A DNA stretch of 32,000 nucleotides, taken from positions 1,920,001-1,952,000 of the forward strand of contig NZ_CP034549.1 in the NCBI RefSeq assembly GCF_003966335.1. Reading direction: 5' to 3'. This document shows, piece by piece, positions 3,110-22,565 of this stretch. The notes under the pieces were generated by a model. The model was not told the origin of the DNA, did not search any database, and saw only the letters and a list, made by a program, of their open reading frames with translations. Position 1 is the first letter of the stretch; each line of letters starts with the position of its first letter. The stretch is from Nonlabens ponticola (GTDB taxonomy: Bacteria > Bacteroidota > Bacteroidia > Flavobacteriales > Flavobacteriaceae). Made by a program: the position numbers and the translations under genes.

Positions 3110-5116
3110 CTATTCAACAACCACCTTAAAGCTGCGTACTGCATCTGCAAATTCAATTTTAACAATGTATATTCCAGCTTTTTCTACAATAAAGCTGTCG
3201 CCTAAGACTCTTTCTTTTTTGATCTGGCGTCCTGCAAGGTCATAAACTGTCACGGTTGGTTGTTGTATATCACCCTTGATGAAGAACAAACCAGTGCTTG
3301 AAGGATTAGGGTAGAGTAGTAGGTTGGCTAATACTTCATCACCAACGCTAGCAGTAGTTCCAAAAGTATGAGAGCCTAGATCATCAAACGTATTTATTGG
3401 GAATTCATTCCATTCCGCAGCTAGATTAAAAGAAACTGTTGGTCCTGTAACTTCTGGCTTGCGTACTAAGGTCACGTTTTGCGCAAAATCTGCACCACCG
3501 CCACCAAAGTTTCCTACTATGTCGATCAACTCATCATTTTTGAACAAGCCGACTGGATCATTACCATTAAAGTCTAATGCCGTGCCGCTGTTGACAAGAA
3601 CATCTGCCTCATCAGTTATTTCAGAATCCGCACCACTGTTGGCAATAACAAACACCTCACCATCAGCCAATGTGCCTGTTAGAGGCGTGTCGCTAGACCA
3701 ATTGCCACCACCATTGGTATCACGTTGCAAACTGTAATTTGATAGATCCACAGCTTCACCAGTGAAGTTGGCAATCTCAATCGCTTTATTTACACCACTG
3801 CCTTCAATGTATTCTGATATAAATAGTTCGGAGGACTCGGTAGAACCATCGCGTGCCTCTAGACTAACGACCGTTCTATCATCTGGAAACTCGTCATTAT
3901 CAGTATCTACGTTAGTATCATCATCCGGATCATCACTGATAGCCGTTACAATTTCTCCATCTAAGGTTTCCTCGCTATTTCCGGTCGCCGTTACCTGATT
4001 GCTTACACAGTTACACTCGCTATCAATGTCTTCTTGTGTAATAGAGTAGCGCAATATACCAGATGGAATCTCAGACGACAAGCCAGGAGCAAGACTTTCT
4101 AGGTTTTTAGGTTCTTCAAAGATACCTTTCTCTGCACCTACTGAAATTTGCCACACGGTACTGGTACCACGATTTGTAATTGTGTAGGTGTATTGTATTT
4201 CATCACCTACATTCACTTCATCATCATTATTCAAGTCTACATAAGTTCCTGATAATGTAACAGCGAGAATATTCGTCTCTTCTGGAGTTCCCCAAATTTG
4301 ATTCACGTATTGTGGTACATCTATGAAAGGATTGCGATTATTTTGATGTTCAAAAATCTCGTTGTTTCTATCAATCTCACGATCACTTACTGGATCTTCT
4401 GCATGCCATTTAAGTAGCAAATTAATGTACCAATCCTCATAAAATTGCCCTCTAGATCCATCACGTGGATCACGATCTACATTGGGACTATCCCAAGAAC
4501 TATCGTCAAATCGATCTTGGTATCTTGTAGCAAAGTATAATAATGATCTAGCTACATCACCTTTAAATTCATCGATGGGTTCAAAAGCGGTACCGCTATA
4601 TCCATCGACACTTGATGGACCACGCTTACTACCATTGCTAGAAGTATATTCTGGATTATTTACCTCACTAAAAGGCCAGCTACCGCGCGCACCGTTAACC
4701 GATCCATCGGTAGGCACTACGTGGTGAGCATCGCTGCGCATAGGCTCTTGACTATTGAATCGTCCTTGAGGAAAAATGTGCTCGCGATTATAGCAGGTAC
4801 CTTCTGCGCCTACATTACCACAGTTTTCTGAAAACTCATAATTATAAGGGTCTGGACCATCCGGATTTTCAGAATAGATATCAAGGATAGTATTGGTTTG
4901 TGTACCACCATCATAAAACTCGTCATTATCGCTTGTCTGATATAAAGTAAGCAGCGCATTATAGCTGCGACCATTGTATCCATCGCTTATGATTTGAGAT
5001 AATGCGGTTTTAAGTTCAAAGCCATCAAGACCTTGGGCGTCGTCGTAATAACCAGCTGGTGGTTGGGCCGTTGCCAGTGCGGCTAACAGCAGGAAGAATA
5101 AGGTAACATTTTTCAT
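3110..5116 (-). CDS. Secreted multidomain nuclease: Endonuclease I family domain, repeat domain, lamin-tail (LTD) domain and T9SS C-terminal sorting domain
   Basis: 668 aa with a signal peptide. Endonuclease-I-like motifs: YNREHIFPQ, DAHHVVPTDGSVNGARGSWPF, RNPFID. LTD-like block: ELFISEYIEGSGVNKAIEIANFTG...FVIAN. The C-terminus (LLLYPNPSSTGLFFIKGD...VTVYDLAGRQI...GIYIVKIE) is typical of the Por/T9SS tail. Confidence 0.8.
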   Translation of the reverse strand: MKNVTLFFLLLAALATAQPPAGYYDDAQGLDGFELKTALSQIISDGYNGRSYNALLTLYQTSDNDEFYDGGTQTNTILDIYSENPDGPDPYNYEFSENCGNVGAEGTCYNREHIFPQGRFNSQEPMRSDAHHVVPTDGSVNGARGSWPFSEVNNPEYTSSNGSKRGPSSVDGYSGTAFEPIDEFKGDVARSLLYFATRYQDRFDDSSWDSPNVDRDPRDGSRGQFYEDWYINLLLKWHAEDPVSDREIDRNNEIFEHQNNRNPFIDVPQYVNQIWGTPEETNILAVTLSGTYVDLNNDDEVNVGDEIQYTYTITNRGTSTVWQISVGAEKGIFEEPKNLESLAPGLSSEIPSGILRYSITQEDIDSECNCVSNQVTATGNSEETLDGEIVTAISDDPDDDTNVDTDNDEFPDDRTVVSLEARDGSTESSELFISEYIEGSGVNKAIEIANFTGEAVDLSNYSLQRDTNGGGNWSSDTPLTGTLADGEVFVIANSGADSEITDEADVLVNSGTALDFNGNDPVGLFKNDELIDIVGNFGGGGADFAQNVTLVRKPEVTGPTVSFNLAAEWNEFPINTFDDLGSHTFGTTASVGDEVLANLLLYPNPSSTGLFFIKGDIQQPTVTVYDLAGRQIKKERVLGDSFIVEKAGIYIVKIEFADAVRSFKVVVE

Positions 5117-13326: not shown

Positions 13327-14109
13327 TTATTGCATATCAAAAATTATTGGTAATTCATACATCACACGTACTGGCTCACCTCTTTGATAGCCTGGTTTAA
13401 ATTCAGGCAATTGTTGTAGAACATTTAAAGCTTCATATTCCAAAAGAGGATTTAAGGCATCAACCTTAAAGGACTCAGCTTTTCCTTCTTTATTAATGGT
13501 GAATTGTGTTTCTATCTCAATTGCACCAGATAAACCAGTATGACCAGCGATACCTTTATTGAATTTTCTTGAAACAAGAAGCGCTATGTTTTTTTGCATA
13601 CAATTTTTGCGACCTTTATTTGGTCGCTCTTTAAAGCAGCCTGGGTAAACAGGCACTTTTTCTATAAAAGAAATCGCTATTTCTGACTCTTTATCTGATT
13701 GATTTAATTCTTCGTCAAGGTTTTGAAGATCATTTTCACGACTTATATGATCCTTTGATCGAATTAAGCCTATTCGAGATCTTTTGACAATTGAGCTACT
13801 AGGCTTACTTAGTTGAATAGCCTTAGTATAAGCATCTTTTGCATCCTCATAGTTTGCCAATGCAAACTCTATATCACCTTTAATTTGATAAACATATGCT
13901 TGCTTACTCAAATTCTCATTTTGTAGATTTTTCTCTACTTGTTTTTTAGCCCACTCGAATTTTTGTAGCGAATACGATTTTCTAGTCTCATTGAAGATCG
14001 CAACATCGCTGAGACTAGTATTTTTATTGAGTTGTGAGTAGGTACTAATACTCGTAAGTATTACAACGAGGATAAAGATATTTCTGGTGGTCATAATGGC
14101 AAGGTTCAT
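13327..14109 (-). CDS. Secreted TPR plus TonB C-terminal-domain protein, paralogue 1
   Basis: 260 aa. Signal peptide, a TPR-like segment (YQIKGDIEFALANYEDAKDAYTKAIQL), and a C-terminal TonB_C-like region: VPVYPGC...C...GAIEIETQFTINKEG...ALNVLQQLPEFKPGYQRGEPVRVMYELPIIF. Confidence 0.7.
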   Translation of the reverse strand: MNLAIMTTRNIFILVVILTSISTYSQLNKNTSLSDVAIFNETRKSYSLQKFEWAKKQVEKNLQNENLSKQAYVYQIKGDIEFALANYEDAKDAYTKAIQLSKPSSSIVKRSRIGLIRSKDHISRENDLQNLDEELNQSDKESEIAISFIEKVPVYPGCFKERPNKGRKNCMQKNIALLVSRKFNKGIAGHTGLSGAIEIETQFTINKEGKAESFKVDALNPLLEYEALNVLQQLPEFKPGYQRGEPVRVMYELPIIFDMQ

Positions 14110-14150
14110 TTGTCTTTTCTAAAACTTAGTATTGATTTGCTGATGGTCAA

Positions 14151-14954
14151 TTATTCCACGTAAAAGATAATAGGCAATGCATATACCACGCTTACTGGCA
14201 CACCTTTTTGTTCGCCGGGCTGCATTTGTGTTATGCTTGATACTACACGAATAGCTTCTTCTTCTAGGATAGGATTAATTGATTTTGCATGTACATCAAC
14301 AACCTTTCCAGTATCATCAATTTTAAATTGAACACGTATAGAGATCTTTCCTAGAATCCCAGTAAGAGTGGCAATATCGGTATCGAATTCATTTGACACA
14401 TGAGCGCTTACAGCATCTTGCATGCAAGCTTTTAATTCAAGATTGGTTTGGTTTGCATCACAACCAGGATAGACTGGTACTCTTTCAATAATTGCAAAAG
14501 GCACAGTAGTCAGTGATGTATCTATTGTGGTTTTCTTTTTTGCGATCGAATCCTTTTTAACTTTAGGTAGCTTATTAGCATCAAAATCTTTTTCTCTCAT
14601 TATTCTTTCTACAGATCGAGAGATACCTATCTGTGCAATATTAGTGAGCGGACTTCCAATAGGAGCGCTTTCTAATGTTTTGAGATAAGCTTCTTTTGCT
14701 TTATTCATATCTCGTTCAGCAAAATAGATATGGGCATCCAATAATTGAACCTGACTCAAATCCTTGAGATCATCAGACTGCAAACATTTATTCATCAATT
14801 TGCGAGCGCTGTCAAAATCTTGCGTAGCATAAGCCTTAAAAGTTTTGTCGATTTTCTTTTTATCTCGGCGCGATAAATCATCAAGTGTTTGACTAAAAGA
14901 AATAGTCGGCAGAATAAATAGCAAAAGGAAAAAAGTAATAAAAGGTTTATTCAT
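14151..14954 (-). CDS. Secreted TPR plus TonB C-terminal-domain protein, paralogue 2
   Basis: 267 aa with the same architecture: VPVYPGC...C...ISIRVQFKIDDTGKV...EEAIRVVSSITQMQPGEQKGVPVSVVYALPIIF. Confidence 0.7.
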   Translation of the reverse strand: MNKPFITFFLLLFILPTISFSQTLDDLSRRDKKKIDKTFKAYATQDFDSARKLMNKCLQSDDLKDLSQVQLLDAHIYFAERDMNKAKEAYLKTLESAPIGSPLTNIAQIGISRSVERIMREKDFDANKLPKVKKDSIAKKKTTIDTSLTTVPFAIIERVPVYPGCDANQTNLELKACMQDAVSAHVSNEFDTDIATLTGILGKISIRVQFKIDDTGKVVDVHAKSINPILEEEAIRVVSSITQMQPGEQKGVPVSVVYALPIIFYVE

Positions 14955-14997
14955 TTGGTAATGTTATGCGGAATTAATTTTTTAATTCAATCGTTAT

Positions 14998-15756
14998 CTA
15001 CAAATGTACATGCAGGTTCTCACGCAATCTTACGGCGTTCCCATCATAGATAGCTGGCTCGATGTCAGTAATACTTTGTAAAATTCTAATCGCCTCTAAT
15101 TCAAATAATGGGTGCGATGAAAACGGCTGTATATCAGATAGTGAACCATCTTTTTCAATAGTAAAATGACCGCCTATAAAAGCATGCCCTTTCCAATTAA
15201 TAGCATCATATAGACCGTCATCAAAATTATAAGTCACTAAATCATTTATATAATAGTGCAGACATTTATCGGTTGCCGTAGCGGTTTCTTCTTTCTCACA
15301 ACCGCGGTAGGTCGCCATCTTATCAAGGCTTTCTATTTTTTCATTGCTGCTCATGTAGATTAAATCGTTTTTTAGATCTTCCTGGATACTATTGTTAGGA
15401 TGGCAGTTGTTTCCAGAATGTTTGATGTGGACCTTTGCTCTTGCTATGTAATTCTGCAATAGAATTACCTTGTCGCTTCCTATTTTCAAGGATTGTATTG
15501 CTTCTAGATAGGCTTTTTGAGCCTCTTTATATTCTTGATTTGCATAATATAAATTTCCTAGAAAAATTTGAGCGTCAGCATTTACGGAACCCTCATTTTT
15601 CTCAAATGCTTTTATGCATTGGCGTATGGCACGGGCATATTTATGTTTTTGATAAAGCTTGATAGATCTCCTATAGTCCTTAGATAACTCGCTTGTTTGG
15701 GCATAAGAATTCAAGGCAAATAGTGACATCATCATCACCAATAGAGTACGTTTCAA
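14998..15756 (-). CDS. Secreted TPR plus divergent TonB_C-like protein, paralogue 3 (start re-assigned)
   Basis: The track ORF runs to 15999, but that part is antisense to aroC. A TTG at 15756 gives (M)[19 protein letters not shown], a clean signal peptide. The length (252 aa) matches the paralogues, and a TAACTTTG -7 box lies 30 nt upstream. Alternative starts are the ATGs at 15735 and 15822. Confidence 0.6.
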
Positions 15757-15785
15757 AAGATCAACTTTAAAAGTTAAAGAACTCT

Positions 15786-15793
15786 CAAAGTTA
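15786..15793 (-). promoter_or_regulatory. Candidate -7 box (TAACTTTG on the minus strand) for TonB_C paralogue 3
   Basis: Plus-strand CAAAGTTA. It lies 29 nt upstream of the proposed TTG start. Confidence 0.3.
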
Positions 15794-15807
15794 ACTATCT
15801 CAAACCT

Positions 15808-15815
15808 TATATTTG
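15808..15815 (+). promoter_or_regulatory. Candidate -7 box (TATATTTG), 5 nt from the aroC ATG
   Basis: Matches TAnnTTTG. The spacer TTCGC is followed by the ATG at 15821. Confidence 0.4.
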
Positions 15816-15820
15816 TTCGC

Positions 15821-16885
15821 ATGGCAGGAAATACCTTTGGACAACTTTTTAAGCTCACCACCTTTGGTGAGTCACACGGTATAGCAATAGGTGGAATCAT
15901 TGACGGCTGTCCGGCTGGGCTCCAGTTGGATCTCAAAGCCGTGCAACGTGATCTTGATCGCCGTAAACCTGGCCAAAGCAAGATCGTGACCCAGCGCAAG
16001 GAATCAGATACTGTGCAGATTCTTTCTGGGATTTTTGAAGGTGTTACTACGGGAACGCCTATTGGTTTTCAAATCGTCAACGAGAACCAAAAATCAAAGG
16101 ATTACTCACATATAAAAGACACGTACAGACCTAGTCATGCAGATAAGGTTTACGACGATAAATACGGTACTCGCGATTATCGTGGTGGTGGTCGCAGCAG
16201 CGCTCGTGAGACCGCTAGTAGGGTGGTGGCTGGCGCGGTGGCAAAACAGCTTTTGGCTCACATGAAAATTTATGCGTTTACCACGGCTGTAGGTGATCTA
16301 GAACAAGACAAGCCTTATCAAGAGCTTGATTTTAACGAGATCGAGAATAATGCAGTAAGGTGTGCAGATTCCGCTTTCGCGAAAGCGTGCACTCAAAAAA
16401 TCCTTGAGGTCAGAAAGGCAGGTGACACTATAGGTGGCGTCATAACATGCGTTATCCAGAATGTTGACTCTGGTCTGGGCGAGCCAGTCTTTGACAAACT
16501 ACATGCAGATCTTGCCAAAGCCATGCTGTCCATCAACGCGGTAAAAGGTTTTGAATACGGTAGTGGCTTTGAAGGAAGCAAGATGCTGGGCAGCGAGCAT
16601 AACGATCTTTACAATCAGGACGGCACCACTCAAACCAACTTGAGCGGTGGTATTCAAGGTGGTATATCCAATGGTATGGACATCTATTTCAAAGTTGCCT
16701 TTAAACCAGTTGCCACCATCATGCAAGATCAGCCAACGATTAATTCTAAGGGTGAACAAACGCAGATGCAAGGAAAAGGGCGGCACGATCCATGTGTGGT
16801 ACCTAGAGCGGTTCCTATTGTTGAAGCCATGGCCGCGCTCGTATTGGCAGACCATTATCTGAGAAGTAGAACATCACGAGTATGA
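15821..16885 (+). CDS. aroC: Chorismate synthase
   Basis: 354 aa. N-terminus [20 protein letters not shown], then [23 protein letters not shown], and [18 protein letters not shown]. Confidence 0.95.
16372..16387. repeat. Dispersed palindromic element core, copy 6, inside the aroC CDS (CGCTTTCGCGAAAGCG)
   Basis: Frame check from 15821 gives gat tcc gct ttc gcg aaa gcg tgc = DSAFAKAC. Confidence 0.9.
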
Positions 16886-17391: not shown

Positions 17392-18720
17392 ATGAAAAAA
17401 TTAGCATTACACTGGCAAATATTAATCGGGATGACCGCTGGAATCATCTTTGGTTTCATCATGGTGCAGCCATCTTGGGGTCCTGAATTTGTAGCAGATT
17501 GGATCAATCCATTCGGTACCATATTTGTCAATTTGCTCAAGCTTATTGCAGTGCCACTTATTCTAGCCTCCTTGATCAAAGGAATTTCTGATCTTAAGGA
17601 TATTGCGAAATTCCGCAACATGGGATTACGTACTATTATCATTTACATAGCAACCACGATAATTGCTATAACACTAGGATTAGGACTGGTTAATTTATTG
17701 AATCCTGGTTCAGGAATCTCTCAAGACACCATCGAGAATTTGAGTTCAACCTATGAGGGTAATTCAAACATCGCAGGCAAATTAGCCACCGCAGCAGCGC
17801 AAAAAGATGCAGGGCCACTACAAGCTCTAGTAGATATGGTTCCAGATAATGCTGTCGCTGCCATGTCTAATAACAGCCTTATGCTACAGGTGATTTTCTT
17901 CGCCATATTTCTAGGTATTTCCATGCTATTAATAGGTGAGGATCGAGCGAAACCACTTAAAGATTTCTTTGATTCACTCAATGATGTAGTGCTTAAAATG
18001 GTGGATCTGATTATGCTCACGGCTCCTTTTGCGGTGTTTGCACTACTTGCTAATGTGGTTGTAAGTGCTGACGATCCAGAGATCCTTCTGGCATTATTAT
18101 TCTATGCAGGAACCGTTGTTTTGGGATTACTGTGTATGATTGCGGTTTACTGTTTGATATTTTGGTTTTATGTGGGTAAATCACCACTATGGTTTCTCAA
18201 TAAGATTGCACCAGCTCAATTACTTGCATTCTCAACCAGCTCCAGTGCTGCCACCTTACCTGTCACCATGGAACGTGTTGAGGAACACATGGGCGTTGAG
18301 AAAGAGGTTGCCAGTTTCGTATTACCAGTAGGTGCGACCATTAACATGGACGGTACAAGTTTGTATCAGGCAGTTGCAGCCGTATTCGTATGTCAAGCAT
18401 TGGGAATTGATCTTACGTTGGGCGCACAACTAACTATCATTCTAACGGCTTTACTAGCATCCATAGGTAGTGCCGCGGTTCCTGGTGCTGGTATGGTGAT
18501 GCTGGTTATCGTGTTGGAGTCCATCGATTTTCCTGCTGAGCTTCTTCCAGTCGCACTAGCGCTCATCTTTGCGGTAGATCGACCTCTAGACATGCTACGC
18601 ACCACAGTCAATGTGACTGGTGATGCAACGGTTGCTTCGGTGGTGGCAAAATCGCTGGGCAAATTCGGCGAGCCAGATGTGAAGGATTGGGATGATAATC
18701 TTGATGAAGTTACTTCATAG
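17392..18720 (+). CDS. Dicarboxylate/amino acid:cation symporter (DAACS; GltP/GltT-like glutamate/aspartate or C4-dicarboxylate transporter)
   Basis: 442 aa and polytopic. Family-typical blocks: AFSTSSSAATLPVTM, PVGATINMDGTSLYQ, DRPLDMLRTTVNVTGDA. Confidence 0.85.
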   Translation: MKKLALHWQILIGMTAGIIFGFIMVQPSWGPEFVADWINPFGTIFVNLLKLIAVPLILASLIKGISDLKDIAKFRNMGLRTIIIYIATTIIAITLGLGLVNLLNPGSGISQDTIENLSSTYEGNSNIAGKLATAAAQKDAGPLQALVDMVPDNAVAAMSNNSLMLQVIFFAIFLGISMLLIGEDRAKPLKDFFDSLNDVVLKMVDLIMLTAPFAVFALLANVVVSADDPEILLALLFYAGTVVLGLLCMIAVYCLIFWFYVGKSPLWFLNKIAPAQLLAFSTSSSAATLPVTMERVEEHMGVEKEVASFVLPVGATINMDGTSLYQAVAAVFVCQALGIDLTLGAQLTIILTALLASIGSAAVPGAGMVMLVIVLESIDFPAELLPVALALIFAVDRPLDMLRTTVNVTGDATVASVVAKSLGKFGEPDVKDWDDNLDEVTS

Positions 18721-18883: not shown

Positions 18884-19915
18884 ATGAATGTTTGTTTTAT
18901 CATGTATCCATGGGAAGAAATCGTGCCAGAAAACGACACGACTCTTGCCTTAATCCACGAGTGCGTTAAGCGCGGTCATACCGTTGCTATCGCGACTCCT
19001 GCAAACTTGACAATACGTGATAGTATTGCTTATGCGTTTTCTAAAGTATTGCGCAGAATGGATAAGGTGCCTGCGCAACTCAAATCATTCTATAAACGTG
19101 CGGAACTTAAGGAAAAAATGTTGCCGCTGGCAGGATTTGATGTGATCATGATGAGAGCAAATCCACCACTGGATCCTATCGCGCTCAATTTTCTGGACAG
19201 TGTTAAGGATGATACGTTTATCGTAAATGATATAGAAGGATTGCGCAAAGCAAATAACAAACTCTATACGGCATGTTTTGATGATCCTGATAACACGATC
19301 ATACCACGTACGCATGTTTCTAAAAACAAAGAGTACCTAAAATCTGTCATTAAGGAAAACCCTAGAGATCGTATGATTATGAAGCCATTAAATGGTTTTG
19401 GCGGTAGTGGCGTGATCATGATTGAGAAAAACGCGATGCACAATGTGAACTCTCTCATGGATTTTTACATTGATAATAAGGACGGTACAACCAACTATAT
19501 CATTTTGCAGGACTATATCGAGGGCGCAGAACAAGGCGACTCTCGTATTCTGTTGTTAAATGGTCAACCTATAGGCGCTGTACGACGTGTTCCAGGTAGT
19601 GAAGATCATAGATCAAACATAAGCGCTGGTGGTACTTTTGAAAGGCACGTGCTCAATAAAGCGGAAAAAGCATTGTGCCGCAAAATAGGGCAGAAGCTCG
19701 TTGATGACGGCTTGTACTTTGTAGGTATAGACGTAATCAACGGCATGCTGGTAGAGGTAAATGTAATGTCGCCAGGCGGCATTACCTACATCAATAAAGT
19801 AAGCAAGGTCAAGTTGCAAGAGAAAGTGATTGACTTTTTTGAAGATAAAACGGAAGAACAAGTAAAAGCCTTGCACCGCAAGACCAAATTAAAAAATAGC
19901 CTTATCGATGAATAA
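18884..19915 (+). CDS. Glutathione-synthetase-like (GshB/RimK superfamily) ATP-grasp ligase; substrate unknown
   Basis: 343 aa, colinear by eye with prokaryotic GshB. Blocks: FDVIMMRANPPLD, IVNDIEGLRKANNKLYT, MIMKPLNGFGGSGV, GDSRILLLNGQPIG, HRSNISAGG, LYFVGIDVINGMLVEVNVMSPGG. Confidence 0.75.
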   Translation: MNVCFIMYPWEEIVPENDTTLALIHECVKRGHTVAIATPANLTIRDSIAYAFSKVLRRMDKVPAQLKSFYKRAELKEKMLPLAGFDVIMMRANPPLDPIALNFLDSVKDDTFIVNDIEGLRKANNKLYTACFDDPDNTIIPRTHVSKNKEYLKSVIKENPRDRMIMKPLNGFGGSGVIMIEKNAMHNVNSLMDFYIDNKDGTTNYIILQDYIEGAEQGDSRILLLNGQPIGAVRRVPGSEDHRSNISAGGTFERHVLNKAEKALCRKIGQKLVDDGLYFVGIDVINGMLVEVNVMSPGGITYINKVSKVKLQEKVIDFFEDKTEEQVKALHRKTKLKNSLIDE

Positions 19916-20747
19916 AATGTCCATCAGAGAAATCCTGCGCAAGATCGAGAACGAAGAAATTTTTCATGCCGTGGCAGATGATTACTCATTCTCTATAAAA
20001 ATTGATGATTACGTTCCCTATGCTTGTGCGGCGATTCACGATGGTCACAACTTCAGTAAAGATCTGTGGTCTAACTGTTTGCATACTGCCCACGATCGCT
20101 GGTATGAGGAAGATCCTGCGACCGGCACCATGATTTCATCTTTACCCATTACCATTATCTCTCACGATAGCAGGTTTGAATACGACCTTAATCGATCACC
20201 TGAAGATGCTATTTATGATACCGCTTGGGGCAAGAAATTATGGAAACATCCATTGAGTGATGATCTTAAACAACGTGCACTTGATAAGCATGAGGCATTT
20301 TATCGAGTCGTGTTGCAGCTTATTGTGAAGTTGGAAGAACTATTTGGTAGTGTTGTTTTTTATGATCTACATTCTTATAACAAGAATCGCTGGGATCGAG
20401 AGGTTCCCGTTTTTAATTTAGGAACATCAAATGTCGATCAAAATGAATACAGACAAGCGATTGAGCAATGGCAGGAATTTTTGAACAAAATGACCTTGCC
20501 AATTGACCAAAAGGTAACCTGTGCAATCAATGATGTCTTTCAGGGCAATGGATTCTTTTTGAAATATATTACTGATAACTCTGTAAACTCGTTAGTTCTC
20601 GCGACTGAGGTTTCTAAAATCTACTGCGATGAAGATACAGGTGTGATATATCCAGAGGTTGTACATGCATTAAGCGATCAACTCAAGTATTACATACAAT
20701 CGCATGCCCATCGATTTTATGACAGACACCACACACAAGATTTTTAG
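19908..20747 (+). CDS. N-formylglutamate amidohydrolase (FGase) family hydrolase
   Basis: 279 aa. AAIHDGHNF, SHDSRFEYDLNRSPEDA and VVFYDLHSY resemble the FGase metal/catalytic motifs. It overlaps the upstream gene by 8 nt; an alternative ATG is at 19917. Confidence 0.6.
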   Translation: MNKMSIREILRKIENEEIFHAVADDYSFSIKIDDYVPYACAAIHDGHNFSKDLWSNCLHTAHDRWYEEDPATGTMISSLPITIISHDSRFEYDLNRSPEDAIYDTAWGKKLWKHPLSDDLKQRALDKHEAFYRVVLQLIVKLEELFGSVVFYDLHSYNKNRWDREVPVFNLGTSNVDQNEYRQAIEQWQEFLNKMTLPIDQKVTCAINDVFQGNGFFLKYITDNSVNSLVLATEVSKIYCDEDTGVIYPEVVHALSDQLKYYIQSHAHRFYDRHHTQDF

Positions 20748-20752
20748 TATTT

Positions 20753-21916
20753 ATGAATGATGCAGTGAGAGAAGAGTACCAGGTGGTACTTGACATTGAT
20801 GATAATATTAATAGACTGGTACGCAATTTGGAATTGCTGGCATTTATCAATCCGTTGAATATAGCTGCGGAGCGTAAGCAATTTTACCGCGCAAAATACC
20901 GATACAACCCACAATTCAAGTATCGTAAGGTGCGATTTGATACCTATAAGCTACATCGCTTATTCTACAGCCAGCGATTAAAGGATATTCAGGATGATCG
21001 ATTGAGAGAGTTATACAAGGATGTAATCTATACCTACAGTGGCTTATTACAATGTATTGAAAGCATAGCGCAGCCCGATAATAAATTCTATTTCAATAGT
21101 TTGCGATTTTATGGCACACCAACAGATCGCATGGTTGAAAATGCAAAATTCATACTGCATTACGAGTCTGACGTTCAGGAATCTGCCCAGTTTCAAAATA
21201 ACATCTCTACCCAAGATGCGATTGAATTTTTCAATGAGTACAAGCGTTTGTATTCCTTTGATTTTGATATAAAGACCAGTAGTGCGATGAGCGCCAGTGC
21301 CATGGTTTCTAATAAGGATCAGCGGTTAATTCTTAAGAAAAATCATTTATTCTCACAGCACCAACTCAATGTGTTGGCGCATCACGAGATAGGTGTGCAC
21401 CTAGTGACAACCTTTAATGCAGACGCACAACCGTTGAAGATTTTCAGCAATGGTTTTCCCAATAATGTAGAGACCCAAGAAGGCCTCGCTGTCTATGCAG
21501 AATATATGAGCGGCAACCTAACGCTCACCAGACTCAAAGAGCTTGCTTATAGGGTTATCGCAACCGATAGCTTGATCAAAGGCAATGACTTCATGGAAAC
21601 ATTTGACCTCATTCACGGCCATTACAAATTAGATCGAGATAAGGCTTTCAACATCACGTTGCGAACGCATCGTGGTGGCGGTTTTACTAAGGATGCTTTA
21701 TATCTTTCTGGCTTGCAAAAAGTATATAGCAGGCACCAACAGGACATCGGTATGGATCACATACTGTTAGGTAAATGTTCTATTGAATATGAAGACACGG
21801 TCAAGTACATGGAACAATTGGGTCTTGTTACACCTATGGCTCATCAATCGTTATCATTGCAAAACAACCACAACACAGACAAGCGTGTAGAGTGGATTTT
21901 AAATAATTTGAAGTAG
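20753..21916 (+). CDS. DUF1704 / QEGLA-motif protein (annotated in databases as flavohemoglobin expression-modulating QEGLA motif protein); putative gluzincin-type metallopeptidase
   Basis: 387 aa. It has an HExxxH-type motif (LAHHEIGVHLVT) and the eponymous ETQEGLAVYAEY. It starts 5 nt after the FGase stop. Confidence 0.7.
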   Translation: MNDAVREEYQVVLDIDDNINRLVRNLELLAFINPLNIAAERKQFYRAKYRYNPQFKYRKVRFDTYKLHRLFYSQRLKDIQDDRLRELYKDVIYTYSGLLQCIESIAQPDNKFYFNSLRFYGTPTDRMVENAKFILHYESDVQESAQFQNNISTQDAIEFFNEYKRLYSFDFDIKTSSAMSASAMVSNKDQRLILKKNHLFSQHQLNVLAHHEIGVHLVTTFNADAQPLKIFSNGFPNNVETQEGLAVYAEYMSGNLTLTRLKELAYRVIATDSLIKGNDFMETFDLIHGHYKLDRDKAFNITLRTHRGGGFTKDALYLSGLQKVYSRHQQDIGMDHILLGKCSIEYEDTVKYMEQLGLVTPMAHQSLSLQNNHNTDKRVEWILNNLK

Positions 21917-21992: not shown

Positions 21993-22565
21993 ATGTCAGA
22001 TCAATTAAAAGACTTACAGGAACGATCAGAAAATCAATGTGAATTGTGTTCTTCTCGAGAATCCTTGCTCATATACGAGATTCCTGATTCACCTGCTGAT
22101 GTGAAGGATACGAGCATTTTGGCATGCAGTACCTGTGTAGATCAATTGACAGATGCAAATCAAGTGCAGCCCAATCACTGGCGTGCTCTTAATGATAGTA
22201 TGTGGAGCACCGTGCCAGCCGTCCAGGTAGTTGCTTACCGCATGTTGCATCAGCTTAAGAATGAAGGCTGGCCAGCAGATTTACTCGATATGATGTATCT
22301 AGAAGATGATGTTAAAAATTGGGCTGAAGCCGGCATTCAACGCGGTCCAAAAATGATACATCGCGACTCAAACGGTCATGTACTAACCAAAGGCGATAGC
22401 ATCGTGCTCATCAAAGATCTTGATGTGAAAGGTGCCAACTTTACAGCAAAGCGCGGTACAGCAGTTCGTAATATTTCACTGGTTCATGACAATGAGAATC
22501 ACATTGAAGGTAAAGTTAATGGTCAACACATTGTGATACTGACGCAGTACGTGAAGAAAAGCTAG
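21993..22565 (+). CDS. phnA: PhnA family protein (zinc-ribbon N-terminus plus PhnA C-terminal domain)
   Basis: 190 aa. CELCSS...CSTC zinc ribbon. The C-terminal block DSNGHVLTKGDSIVLIKDLDVKGANFTAKRGTAVRNISLV...IEGKVNGQHIVILTQYVKK is typical of PhnA. Confidence 0.75.
   Translation: MSDQLKDLQERSENQCELCSSRESLLIYEIPDSPADVKDTSILACSTCVDQLTDANQVQPNHWRALNDSMWSTVPAVQVVAYRMLHQLKNEGWPADLLDMMYLEDDVKNWAEAGIQRGPKMIHRDSNGHVLTKGDSIVLIKDLDVKGANFTAKRGTAVRNISLVHDNENHIEGKVNGQHIVILTQYVKKS

Follow-up and report, generated by a model that had tools for sequence, protein, structure and literature searches.

The glutathione synthase GshB extends gamma-Glu-Cys by adding an amino acid onto its C-terminal carboxylate via an acyl-phosphate. 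In animals, the metabolism of N-acetylaspartylglutamate (NAAG) and beta-citrylglutamate involves RIMKLA and RIMKLB, RimK-like ATP-grasp enzymes that add Glu to an N-acyl amino acid; in NAAG breakdown a metallocarboxypeptidase (glutamate carboxypeptidase II/III) removes the C-terminal Glu, and aspartoacylase, of AstE/AspA M14-like fold, finishes the process. N-formylglutamate amidohydrolase (FGase) frees Glu from N-formyl-Glu, and enzymes of this fold are small-molecule amidohydrolases. MATCAP has, to our knowledge, been characterised in eukaryotes only, since 2022. A C-terminal Tyr or Glu that follows acidic residues is cleaved off by MATCAP/TMCP enzymes, which also trim polyglutamate with alpha linkages (PMC10499314), and Nicot et al. 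described the HExxxH motif together with the glutamate of an EEG motif as the MATCAP metal site (PMC10499314). For bacterial members of this family (DUF1704/MATCAP), no report of an activity was found in the literature searched. We analysed a stretch of 32,000 nucleotides from Nonlabens ponticola (contig NZ_CP034549.1, positions 1,920,001 to 1,952,000, hereafter the window) in which three adjacent genes encode a GshB-like ATP-grasp ligase (g1), an FGase-fold metallo-amidohydrolase (g2) and a predicted zinc carboxypeptidase of the MATCAP family (g3). This trio is a module conserved across Bacteroidota and Alpha-, Gamma- and Deltaproteobacteria.

Relatives of the locus were collected by a profile scan of GTDB genomes, which gave at least 598 relatives of g3; the counts out of 80 given here refer to the best 80, all from Flavobacteriaceae, and the wider taxa come from single locus look-ups, chromid records and a metagenome scan. 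The query of the metagenome scan was a g1-clade alignment headed by a Marinobacterium sequence, and the loci counted had at least 2.1 kb downstream of the ligase (n=56). The order g1-g2-g3 was kept in 67 of the 80 Flavobacteriaceae loci, and 50 of the 56 metagenomic g1-type ligases (89%) were followed directly, on the same strand, by g2 and g3. Photobacterium sp. GJ3 carries the trio as separate genes in the same order as the window, and in Sinorhizobium meliloti and at a second locus (L084) the order is FGase, long MATCAP protein, divergent ligase. The original prediction had made its case depend on the synteny of the triad across phyla, and this synteny was found in Flavobacteriaceae, in metagenomes and at proteobacterial loci.

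Most of the distant g3 homologues in a library-wide search are 600-690 amino acids (aa) long. Many of the long homologues are fusions of about 665 aa, as judged by Pfam and BLAST, with an FGase domain at the N-terminus and a MATCAP domain at the C-terminus, and the N-terminal half of one of them shares 46% identity with g2 over its full length. Fusions listed by the profile search come from Flavobacteriales, Bacteroidales, Cytophagales, a deltaproteobacterial metagenome-assembled genome (MAG) and Marinobacterium. At six of the seven fusion loci examined (Marinobacterium, the deltaproteobacterial MAG, Sanyastnella, Weeksella, Flammeovirgaceae and Bacteroidales) a g1-type ligase lies immediately upstream and overlaps the fusion; the seventh, in Eisenibacter, has the fusion without a ligase. 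The Rhizobiaceae-type MATCAP proteins are about 630 aa long (1176-3092 of L084; 6257-8143 of the S. meliloti megaplasmid locus L086), and their additional N-terminal 250 residues or so are FGase-like (hhalign 98.9%, E-value 3.7e-17). In this rhizobial domain the HDGH, DSRFEYDLNR and DxHS segments are deleted or replaced, and an intact FGase gene adjoins upstream, so that the fused domain reads as a degenerate copy, a predicted pseudo-enzyme. Because g2 and g3 occur as fusions and a dead FGase domain is retained on the rhizobial MATCAP protein, the link between g2 and g3 is the tightest one within the trio.

The module is also rearranged. Thirteen of the 80 Flavobacteriaceae loci show the arrangement aroC-symporter-g3 without g1 and g2 (L003, L008, L010, L017, L020, L021, L030, L032, L054, L060, L067, L070 and L074); some Flagellimonas are included, and their congeners keep the trio. 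These loci suggest that the ligase/FGase pair was lost or moved elsewhere more than once in Flavobacteriaceae. At two metagenomic loci (L099, L102) the FGase function is duplicated, as behind the ligase come, in this order, an FGase gene on its own, a gene for a membrane protein (about 125 aa) and an FGase-MATCAP fusion. Insertions of one or two genes between g1 and g2 were observed in Winogradskyella, Psychroserpens, Formosa, Xanthomarina, Hanstruepera and related genera (L009, L012, L015, L023, L025-L028, L042, L048, L050, L051, L055, L058, L064 and L069); the inserted genes encode a rhodanese with two domains (about 275 aa), in some cases a membrane protein of the RDD family, and a conserved protein of 111 aa without a Pfam match, which is further present at L047, L065, L076 and L077. 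The rhodanese insertion may be a hint of sulfur or thiol chemistry, or it may be incidental. A Pseudoalteromonas chromid (L087) carries a solo 426-aa QEGLA/MATCAP gene between a betIBA-BCCT glycine-betaine cluster and the astA/astD genes of arginine catabolism.

According to the listing of open reading frames (ORFs), g1, g2 and g3 all lie on the + strand (Table 1). ATGAATAAAATG contains the TAA stop of g1, and as the ATG of g2 is at 19908 the two genes overlap by 8 nt; 5 nt separate the TAG stop of g2 from the ATG of g3. An 8-nt overlap between ligase and hydrolase is also seen in distant taxa (L082, L089, L091 and L092). The overlap, the short gap and the cross-phylum synteny support the reading of g1-g3 as a single coupled unit. 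The g2 protein is 100% identical to a N. ponticola 'N-formylglutamate amidohydrolase' that is annotated three codons shorter (276 aa, start at 19917 instead of 19908). Since the N-terminus of the longer form, MNKMSIREIL, matches the family consensus MxKLSIxEII and the 8-nt overlap recurs in other taxa, sequence comparison favours the ATG at 19908 as the true start.

The g3 protein matches the Pfam family PF08014, named MATCAP and formerly DUF1704, over profile positions 1-363 of 365 (E-value 1.4e-91, 307.7 bits against a cut-off of 27). On the hypothetical equivalog TIGR02421 (QEGLA) it scores 306.3 bits, below the cut-off of 338.65; close homologues nonetheless bear the QEGLA name, and the database name of the family refers to modulated expression of flavohaemoglobin (nitric oxide (NO) stress). 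Human KIAA0895L (7z5g) is recognised by sequence (E-value 1.4e-7), where HHEIGVH pairs with RHEIGTH and TQEGLA with TEEGLA, and the candidates for the metal site of g3 are H211-E212-IGV-H216 and Q242-E243-G244, which align with the RHEIGTH and EEG of KIAA0895L. The structural model of g3 (predicted local distance difference test (pLDDT) 90.9) matches the apo and microtubule-bound MATCAP structures 7z5g/7z6s with E-values of 7e-10 to 5e-9 and template-modelling (TM) scores of 0.60-0.62 on the query and 0.69-0.71 on the target; M32 carboxypeptidases rank after MATCAP among the fold matches. The HExxxH and QEG motifs are intact in all 80 Flavobacteriaceae copies, the 13 solo copies included. Thus, the identity of DUF1704 with the MATCAP family, which the original prediction had put forward for confirmation, is supported by the Pfam name, the KIAA0895L alignment and the fold match; the two motifs that it had read, HHEIGVH and ETQEGLAVYAEY, are both in the translation, and profile search and structure comparison place g3 in the family.

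The g2 protein was likewise correctly assigned: its motifs IHDGH, YDLNR and YDLHS are all found in the translation, Pfam places it in the FGase family (PF05013, E-value 4.2e-13, 50.4 bits against a cut-off of 28.9), and the best PDB fold match of its AlphaFold model (pLDDT 87.9) is the FGase 2q7s (E-value 1e-11, TM score 0.68-0.70), with 2odf also matching. M14 carboxypeptidases appear lower, as weak fold matches, and a sequence search of the PDB with g2 returned no relative, the matches being spurious TPR ones. Residues H44, R64, E68, R89, D93, N95, D153 and H155 are kept in at least 92 of 93 homologues, fusions and rhizobial stand-alone copies included, and would correspond to a metal site of the H/E/H type and to carboxylate-binding arginines. 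Two assignments of g2 were rejected. On the HutG equivalog TIGR02017 it scores 22.1 bits for a cut-off of 278.75, and no Pfam match to any further histidine-utilisation enzyme was found among the window ORFs scanned; a role in histidine utilisation was dropped. A poly-gamma-glutamate hydrolase was discarded as well, as no PghP-type structure was recognised among the fold matches listed.

Concerning g1, the Pfam domains GSH-S_N (1.3e-25) and GSH-S_ATP (9.8e-54) and an end-to-end alignment with E. coli GshB (1GSA, E-value 4.5e-38) bear out its colinearity with GshB-type ATP-grasp ligases. Its best NCBIfam model is NF009110/PRK12458 (442.3 bits against a cut-off of 408, residues 1-338 of 343), and it stays below the cut-off of the glut_syn equivalog TIGR01380 (234.9 against 299.05). 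RimK is matched by Pfam (4.1e-19) and through the PDB structures 4iwx/5zct, under the cut-offs of the RimK models (TIGR00768, 80.8 against 143.4; PRK10446, 45.5 against 331). The equivalents of K125, K160, D208, R210, R225, R233, N235, D273, E281 and N283 of E. coli GshB are conserved in g1, and the substitutions include, in the same numbering, K87A, D88N, E124N and R241T. Since the N-domain of g1 is of the GshB type and keeps an RxxPPxD segment that is missing from the sole RimK aligned (Marinobacterium), its acceptor is probably GshB-like in size. Within the g1 clade, identity is 56-69% between Bacteroidota, Gamma- and Deltaproteobacteria (40-46% for Weeksella); it is 31-33% between the clade and E. 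coli GshB and 28-33% between the clade and the rhizobial-type ligases.

Is g1 then a plain glutathione synthase? As originally noted, the 32-kb window holds no glutamate-cysteine ligase (gshA): no such domain was detected when its 32 ORFs were scanned against Pfam. A genomic and chemical survey reported complete gshA-gshB pathways from Proteobacteria, Cyanobacteria, Eukarya and one actinobacterium only, Bacteroidetes being without, and detected N-methyl-bacillithiol in the flavobacterium Polaribacter (PMC6282198). In Vibrio vulnificus, the adjacent COG3930/'glutathione synthetase' pair VV2_1203-1204 belongs to clade-specific accessory DNA (PMC3091676). A genome survey counted the PRK12458 ligase subfamily as GshB (PMC3462692). 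As the g1 clade is common to phyla that make glutathione (GSH) and phyla that lack it, its acceptor cannot depend on gshA. The separate subfamily, the identities of 31-33% outside as against 56-69% inside the clade and the incomplete pathway of Bacteroidetes agree with the view that g1 does not carry out plain glutathione synthesis, and these comparisons support a module distinct from the housekeeping glutathione pathway. The annotation of g1-type ligases as 'glutathione synthase' is probably wrong in Bacteroidota.

Expression and neighbouring genes give some indication of context. In Photobacterium damselae grown at 1% versus 3% NaCl, the adjacent genes for a 'GshB' (RS17020) and a QEGLA protein (RS17025) are up 38-fold and 27-fold, respectively, which shows that ligase and QEGLA gene are co-regulated in Photobacterium, and RimK rises 52-fold at the lower salinity (PMC10308900). 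This is the sole physiological observation that the analysis turned up. Upstream of the module, and divergent from it, RimK is encoded at four Marinobacterium-like loci that are closely related to one another (L081, 4745-5653; L094, L095 and L097), and genes or fragments of MscS-type mechanosensitive channels lie downstream at L081 (9004-9531), at L094 and at the Flammeovirgaceae locus L091 (9818-10645). These RimK and MscS neighbours, together with the low-salt induction in Photobacterium, hint at a connection of the module with salt or osmotic conditions or with glutamate. Redoxin/AhpC and rhodanese or Dps genes stand beside the module in Weeksella and Eisenibacter. Apart from RimK, the MscS-type genes and, in Flavobacteriaceae, a symporter and aroC, the neighbours vary with the lineage.

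The reading that we prefer, at a probability of about 45%, is that of three cytoplasmic enzymes forming a self-contained module for the synthesis and breakdown of a small Glu-containing peptide or an N-acyl/gamma-glutamyl conjugate. The g1 enzyme would convert a small acidic acceptor to an acyl-phosphate at its C-terminal carboxylate and then attach one amino acid; g3, as a MATCAP-type zinc carboxypeptidase, would take the C-terminal residue off again, and g2, as an FGase-type amidohydrolase, would cleave the remaining amide of the N-acyl-glutamate type. Gene fusions typically join consecutive steps, and g2 and g3 would act as one physical unit on such steps. This proposal follows from the chemistries of the three families, the g2-g3 fusions, the GshB-like N-domain of g1 and the lack of a conserved target gene adjoining the module; a small-molecule acceptor is favoured since g1 has the N-domain specific to GshB and FGase-fold enzymes act on small molecules. 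From their sequences g1, g2 and g3 all look catalytically competent. We infer the nature of the substrate, the action of g3 on the g1 product, the succession of g3 and g2 and the glutamate or osmotic link. The isoelectric points of g1, g2 and g3 (7.65, 5.23 and 7.25) give no hint of an acidic protein substrate. A ligase of secondary metabolism was dismissed, the module being too conserved and too widespread.

Several observations weigh against this proposal. The partners are not obligatory: besides the 13 Flavobacteriaceae loci, g3 stands alone in Glaciecola and Pseudoalteromonas, and 6 of the 56 metagenomic g1-type ligases are solo, with no g2 or g3 within the available downstream stretch. 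The role of g3 as an eraser, as put forward in the original prediction, is weakened: g3 is not strictly the eraser of the g1 product, as it persists alone, with intact motifs, in 13 of the 80 loci. If a ligase shares its transcript with the hydrolases that reverse its reaction, some switch has to govern the two, and none is visible. The order of hydrolysis, g3 then g2, is a guess from the specificities of the families. In the loci examined, no conserved gene for a candidate substrate or target was found next to the module. Finally, g1 passes the 'glutathione synthase' model NF003573 (286.8 bits against a cut-off of 272) and keeps nearly all GshB motifs, as would be compatible with GSH-like chemistry; its large flexible loop has the same length as that of the one Marinobacterium RimK aligned (n=1), a likeness that would leave room for a protein acceptor.

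An acceptor of that kind is at the heart of the best-surviving alternative, which we nevertheless regard as unlikely: g1 would add Glu or another residue to the C-terminal tail of one particular protein, in the manner of RimK on ribosomal protein S6 and of TTL/TTLL on tubulin, g3 would trim the alpha-linked residues and g2 would remove the last or atypically linked one. Those members of the g3 family that have been characterised all work on acidic tails of proteins and trim polyglutamate (PMC10499314), the eukaryotic tubulin-tail toolkit is built from the same three superfamilies (ATP-grasp, M14-like fold and MATCAP), and the RimABK system offers a precedent in which an ATP-grasp ligase is encoded alongside a protease that trims (PMC11957791). 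The matches of g1 to RimK models and structures, the divergent RimK neighbour in Marinobacterium-like loci and the co-induction of RimK at low salt in Photobacterium point the same way. However, the N-domain of g1 is of the GshB type and the RimK cut-off is failed, FGase-fold enzymes are amidohydrolases of small molecules, and the module moves as an isolated unit of two or three genes, with no conserved target gene found in the neighbourhoods. An extended form, for which we see rather poor odds, would make the module the prokaryotic counterpart, possibly the source, of the eukaryotic C-terminal tail code, with an ATP-grasp writer and two metallo-erasers, one of the MATCAP type and one of M14-like fold, reversibly lengthening the acidic C-terminus of a bacterial protein, or building an oligoglutamate, under an ionic or osmotic switch; the 27- to 38-fold rise in Photobacterium at low salt is a hint of such switching.

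We consider it improbable as well that the module serves thiol-peptide metabolism, with g1 as a synthetase of GSH or of a GSH analogue using gamma-Glu-Cys from another route, g3 removing Gly and g2 splitting gamma-Glu-Cys in order to control a thiol pool. The score of g1 on NF003573 and its GshB N-domain motifs would fit, as would the two-domain rhodanese that many of the about 20 Flavobacteriaceae loci with a g1-g2 insertion carry there (one of them scanned with Pfam), the Redoxin/AhpC, rhodanese or Dps neighbours in Weeksella and Eisenibacter, and the flavohaemoglobin in the database name of the g3 family. Yet the rhodanese insertion is seen only in a single group of related genera and probably happened once, the cut-off of TIGR01380 is not reached, and the V. 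vulnificus pair is strain-variable (PMC3091676). Moreover, identity within the g1 clade is about 60% when Proteobacteria that make GSH are compared with Bacteroidota, which have no complete gshA-gshB pathway and where N-methyl-bacillithiol occurs, and the specificity of FGase, with Glu as the leaving amine, is ill-suited to gamma-Glu-Cys.

The salvage or catabolism of acidic peptides seems more doubtful still. Here, g3 and g2 would free Glu from imported or endogenous peptides that are N-blocked or acidic, g1 would build something else from the fragment, and in Flavobacteriaceae the upstream symporter would tie the system to Glu/Asp uptake. This symporter is of the SDF family, with GltP as its best NCBIfam match (250 bits, far under the cut-off), and adjoins the module in 67 of the 80 Flavobacteriaceae loci; g3 follows it directly even in the 13 loci without g1 and g2, and the solo g3 of Pseudoalteromonas lies between bet and ast (arginine-to-glutamate) genes. 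On the other hand, the symporter is absent from the Aquimarina loci, which carry the trio, and was not found at any non-flavobacterial locus examined, a hairpin element separates it from g1, and the substrates of SDF carriers are amino acids or dicarboxylates rather than peptides. The 89% of g1-type ligases followed by the hydrolases point instead to a shared substrate scaffold. The Glu/Asp-type symporter of the original prediction is thus present and of the SDF family, but its functional link is weakened by the lineage-specific association and by the hairpin, and we rejected it as a member of the system for the former reason. That glutathione synthetase, HutG and a general peptidase are housekeeping neighbours by coincidence, as the database names of close homologues ('glutathione synthase', 'N-formylglutamate amidohydrolase', 'QEGLA motif protein') would have it, is hardly credible in view of the cross-phylum synteny, the rearranged orders that keep the same three families, the g2-g3 fusions, the HutG score of g2 (22 bits for a cut-off of 279) and the lack of any other histidine-utilisation enzyme, by Pfam, in the scanned window ORFs.

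Table 1. Features of the ligase/amidohydrolase/MATCAP locus and its borders (positions in the window).
Feature	Position	Strand	Length	Remarks
g1, GshB-like ATP-grasp ligase, NF009110/PRK12458 subfamily	18884..19915	+	343 aa	GshB-type N-domain; all ATP-grasp catalytic residues
g2, FGase-fold metallo-amidohydrolase, no HutG orthologue	19908..20747	+	279 aa	Pfam, fold and invariant residues over 93 homologues
g3, MATCAP/DUF1704-family zinc carboxypeptidase (predicted)	20753..21916	+	387 aa	H211-E212-xxx-H216, E243 (QEGLA), RGGGFTKD motif
Perfect palindrome TTACGCTTTCGCGAAAGCGTAA	18756..18777	.	22 bp	Between symporter stop and g1 start; upstream edge of unit
Second copy of TTACGCTTTCGCGAAAGCGTAA	21943..21964	.	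22 bp	Between g3 stop and YjdM-like gene; downstream edge of unit
SDF (Glu/Asp-type) symporter	17392..18720	+		Context; neighbour conserved in Flavobacteriaceae only, not a demonstrated part

The borders of the locus are marked by the palindrome TTACGCTTTCGCGAAAGCGTAA, which occurs in seven copies (up to 3 mismatches, 22 bp each) in the 32-kb window for 0 expected, starting at 331, 6412, 10013, 16369, 18756, 21943 and 27226. Both perfect copies bracket g1-g3 and at least two others (10013, 16369) are inside coding ORFs; the element looks like a dispersed family of repetitive extragenic palindromic (REP)-like or terminator hairpins of the N. ponticola genome. As it is present in both flanking intergenic regions, g1-g3 stand as a unit of their own, and their base composition is the same as that of the surroundings. 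Scans for promoter and terminator consensus sequences gave matches no better than in shuffled sequence, no Rfam family, riboswitches included, was found upstream of g1 or elsewhere in the window, and the PADLOC models of anti-phage defence gave zero matches for g1, g2, g3 and the gene downstream. This downstream gene (21993-22565) encodes a protein with a YjdM/PhnA domain, extended at its N-terminus by about 120 aa in which there are Cys pairs (CxxC); it is absent beside the module in every related locus and was rejected as a member of the system. The remaining window is of housekeeping type, with aroC, rRNA/tRNA modification enzymes, a pair of ABC_transp_aux and ABC-2 membrane genes, purC, phoH and others. 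On its minus strand, three tandem paralogues (260, 267 and up to 333 aa) occupy 13327-15999; the first two match TonB_C (Pfam), and the third ends like them, its TTG start, which overlaps aroC, being probably over-extended. Also on the minus strand, 3110-5116 encodes a 668-aa protein with Endonuclease I, DUF7507 and lamin-tail domains, probably a secreted or surface nuclease.

Each of the three families is already known and annotated, and the module is an uncharacterised variant of known ligase/peptidase pairings. What is new here is that g2 and g3 form a single fused protein in many lineages and that a degenerate FGase domain is fused to MATCAP at Rhizobiaceae-type loci. Beyond incidental table entries, no paper in the literature searched was found to link the three families, to discuss the triad or to give the families a bacterial function, and an earlier computational notice is possible: the 2009 amidoligase survey by Iyer and Aravind reportedly covers ATP-grasp/peptidase neighbourhoods and may mention this context. 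Routine annotation names the trio as a glutathione synthase, an N-formylglutamate amidohydrolase and a protein with a phenotype-derived name only, for what is a compact and widely distributed module whose parts point to reversible, ATP-dependent extension of a peptide. Its substrate, once found, would give bacterial DUF1704 proteins their first biochemical function, would test for a bacterial antecedent of ligase/carboxypeptidase cycles such as tubulin tyrosination and glutamylation, and might expose a new small peptide tied to salt or glutamate homeostasis; interest would rise further if the target were a protein tail or an osmotically controlled oligoglutamate. The module is tractable, with two or three soluble enzymes, natural fusions and carriers amenable to genetics (Vibrio, Photobacterium and Sinorhizobium).

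When compared with known systems, HutG shares the Pfam family and fold of g2, but g2 falls far below the HutG cut-off, has no other histidine-utilisation enzyme nearby and is always partnered with MATCAP. E. coli GshB (1GSA) resembles g1 in its two-domain architecture, its ATP-grasp catalytic residues and both flexible loops; unlike it, g1 belongs to its own subfamily (NF009110, 31-33% identical to GshB) and occurs in Bacteroidota, which lack a complete GSH pathway, and g1-type ligases are followed by two hydrolases in 89% of the metagenomic loci. The NAAG metabolism of animals has the three-step logic of the proposed module; its enzymes belong to other families (M28, AspA) and are not clustered, and nothing suggests that bacteria make NAAG-like compounds with the module.

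RimABK, which polyglutamylates S6, has an ATP-grasp ligase related to g1, and the ligase is encoded together with the trimming peptidase RimB (PMC11957791); RimK itself is a neighbour of the module or co-induced with it in some carriers. The differences are that g1 fails the RimK cut-off and has a GshB-type N-domain, that RimB is retropepsin-like and not a metallohydrolase, and that nothing here indicates S6 as the target. The glutathionylspermidine/trypanothione synthetase-amidases also pair an ATP-dependent ligase with a reversing hydrolase, which sets the level of a small conjugate (PMC2427367). In contrast to our module, the ligase is of another family, the amidase is a CHAP cysteine amidase, both activities are on one polypeptide and the substrates are GSH and spermidine.

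The last comparison is with the eukaryotic tubulin-tail cycle (TTL/TTLL, MATCAP/TMCP1-2, that is KIAA0895L/KIAA0895, and the M14 enzymes CCP). The carrier bacteria have no tubulin, g1 is of the GshB and not of the TTL type, g2 is an FGase-type enzyme and not a CCP, the substrate of the module is probably small, and g3 (387 aa as compared with a construct of 471 aa) is without the eukaryotic N-terminal extension that binds microtubules. Nevertheless, g3 is a true MATCAP homologue; like the tubulin-tail cycle, the module combines an ATP-grasp ligase, an alpha/beta zinc-hydrolase fold related to M14 (by weak matches) and a MATCAP gluzincin, and the chemistry of these families is centred on acidic, Glu-rich C-termini.

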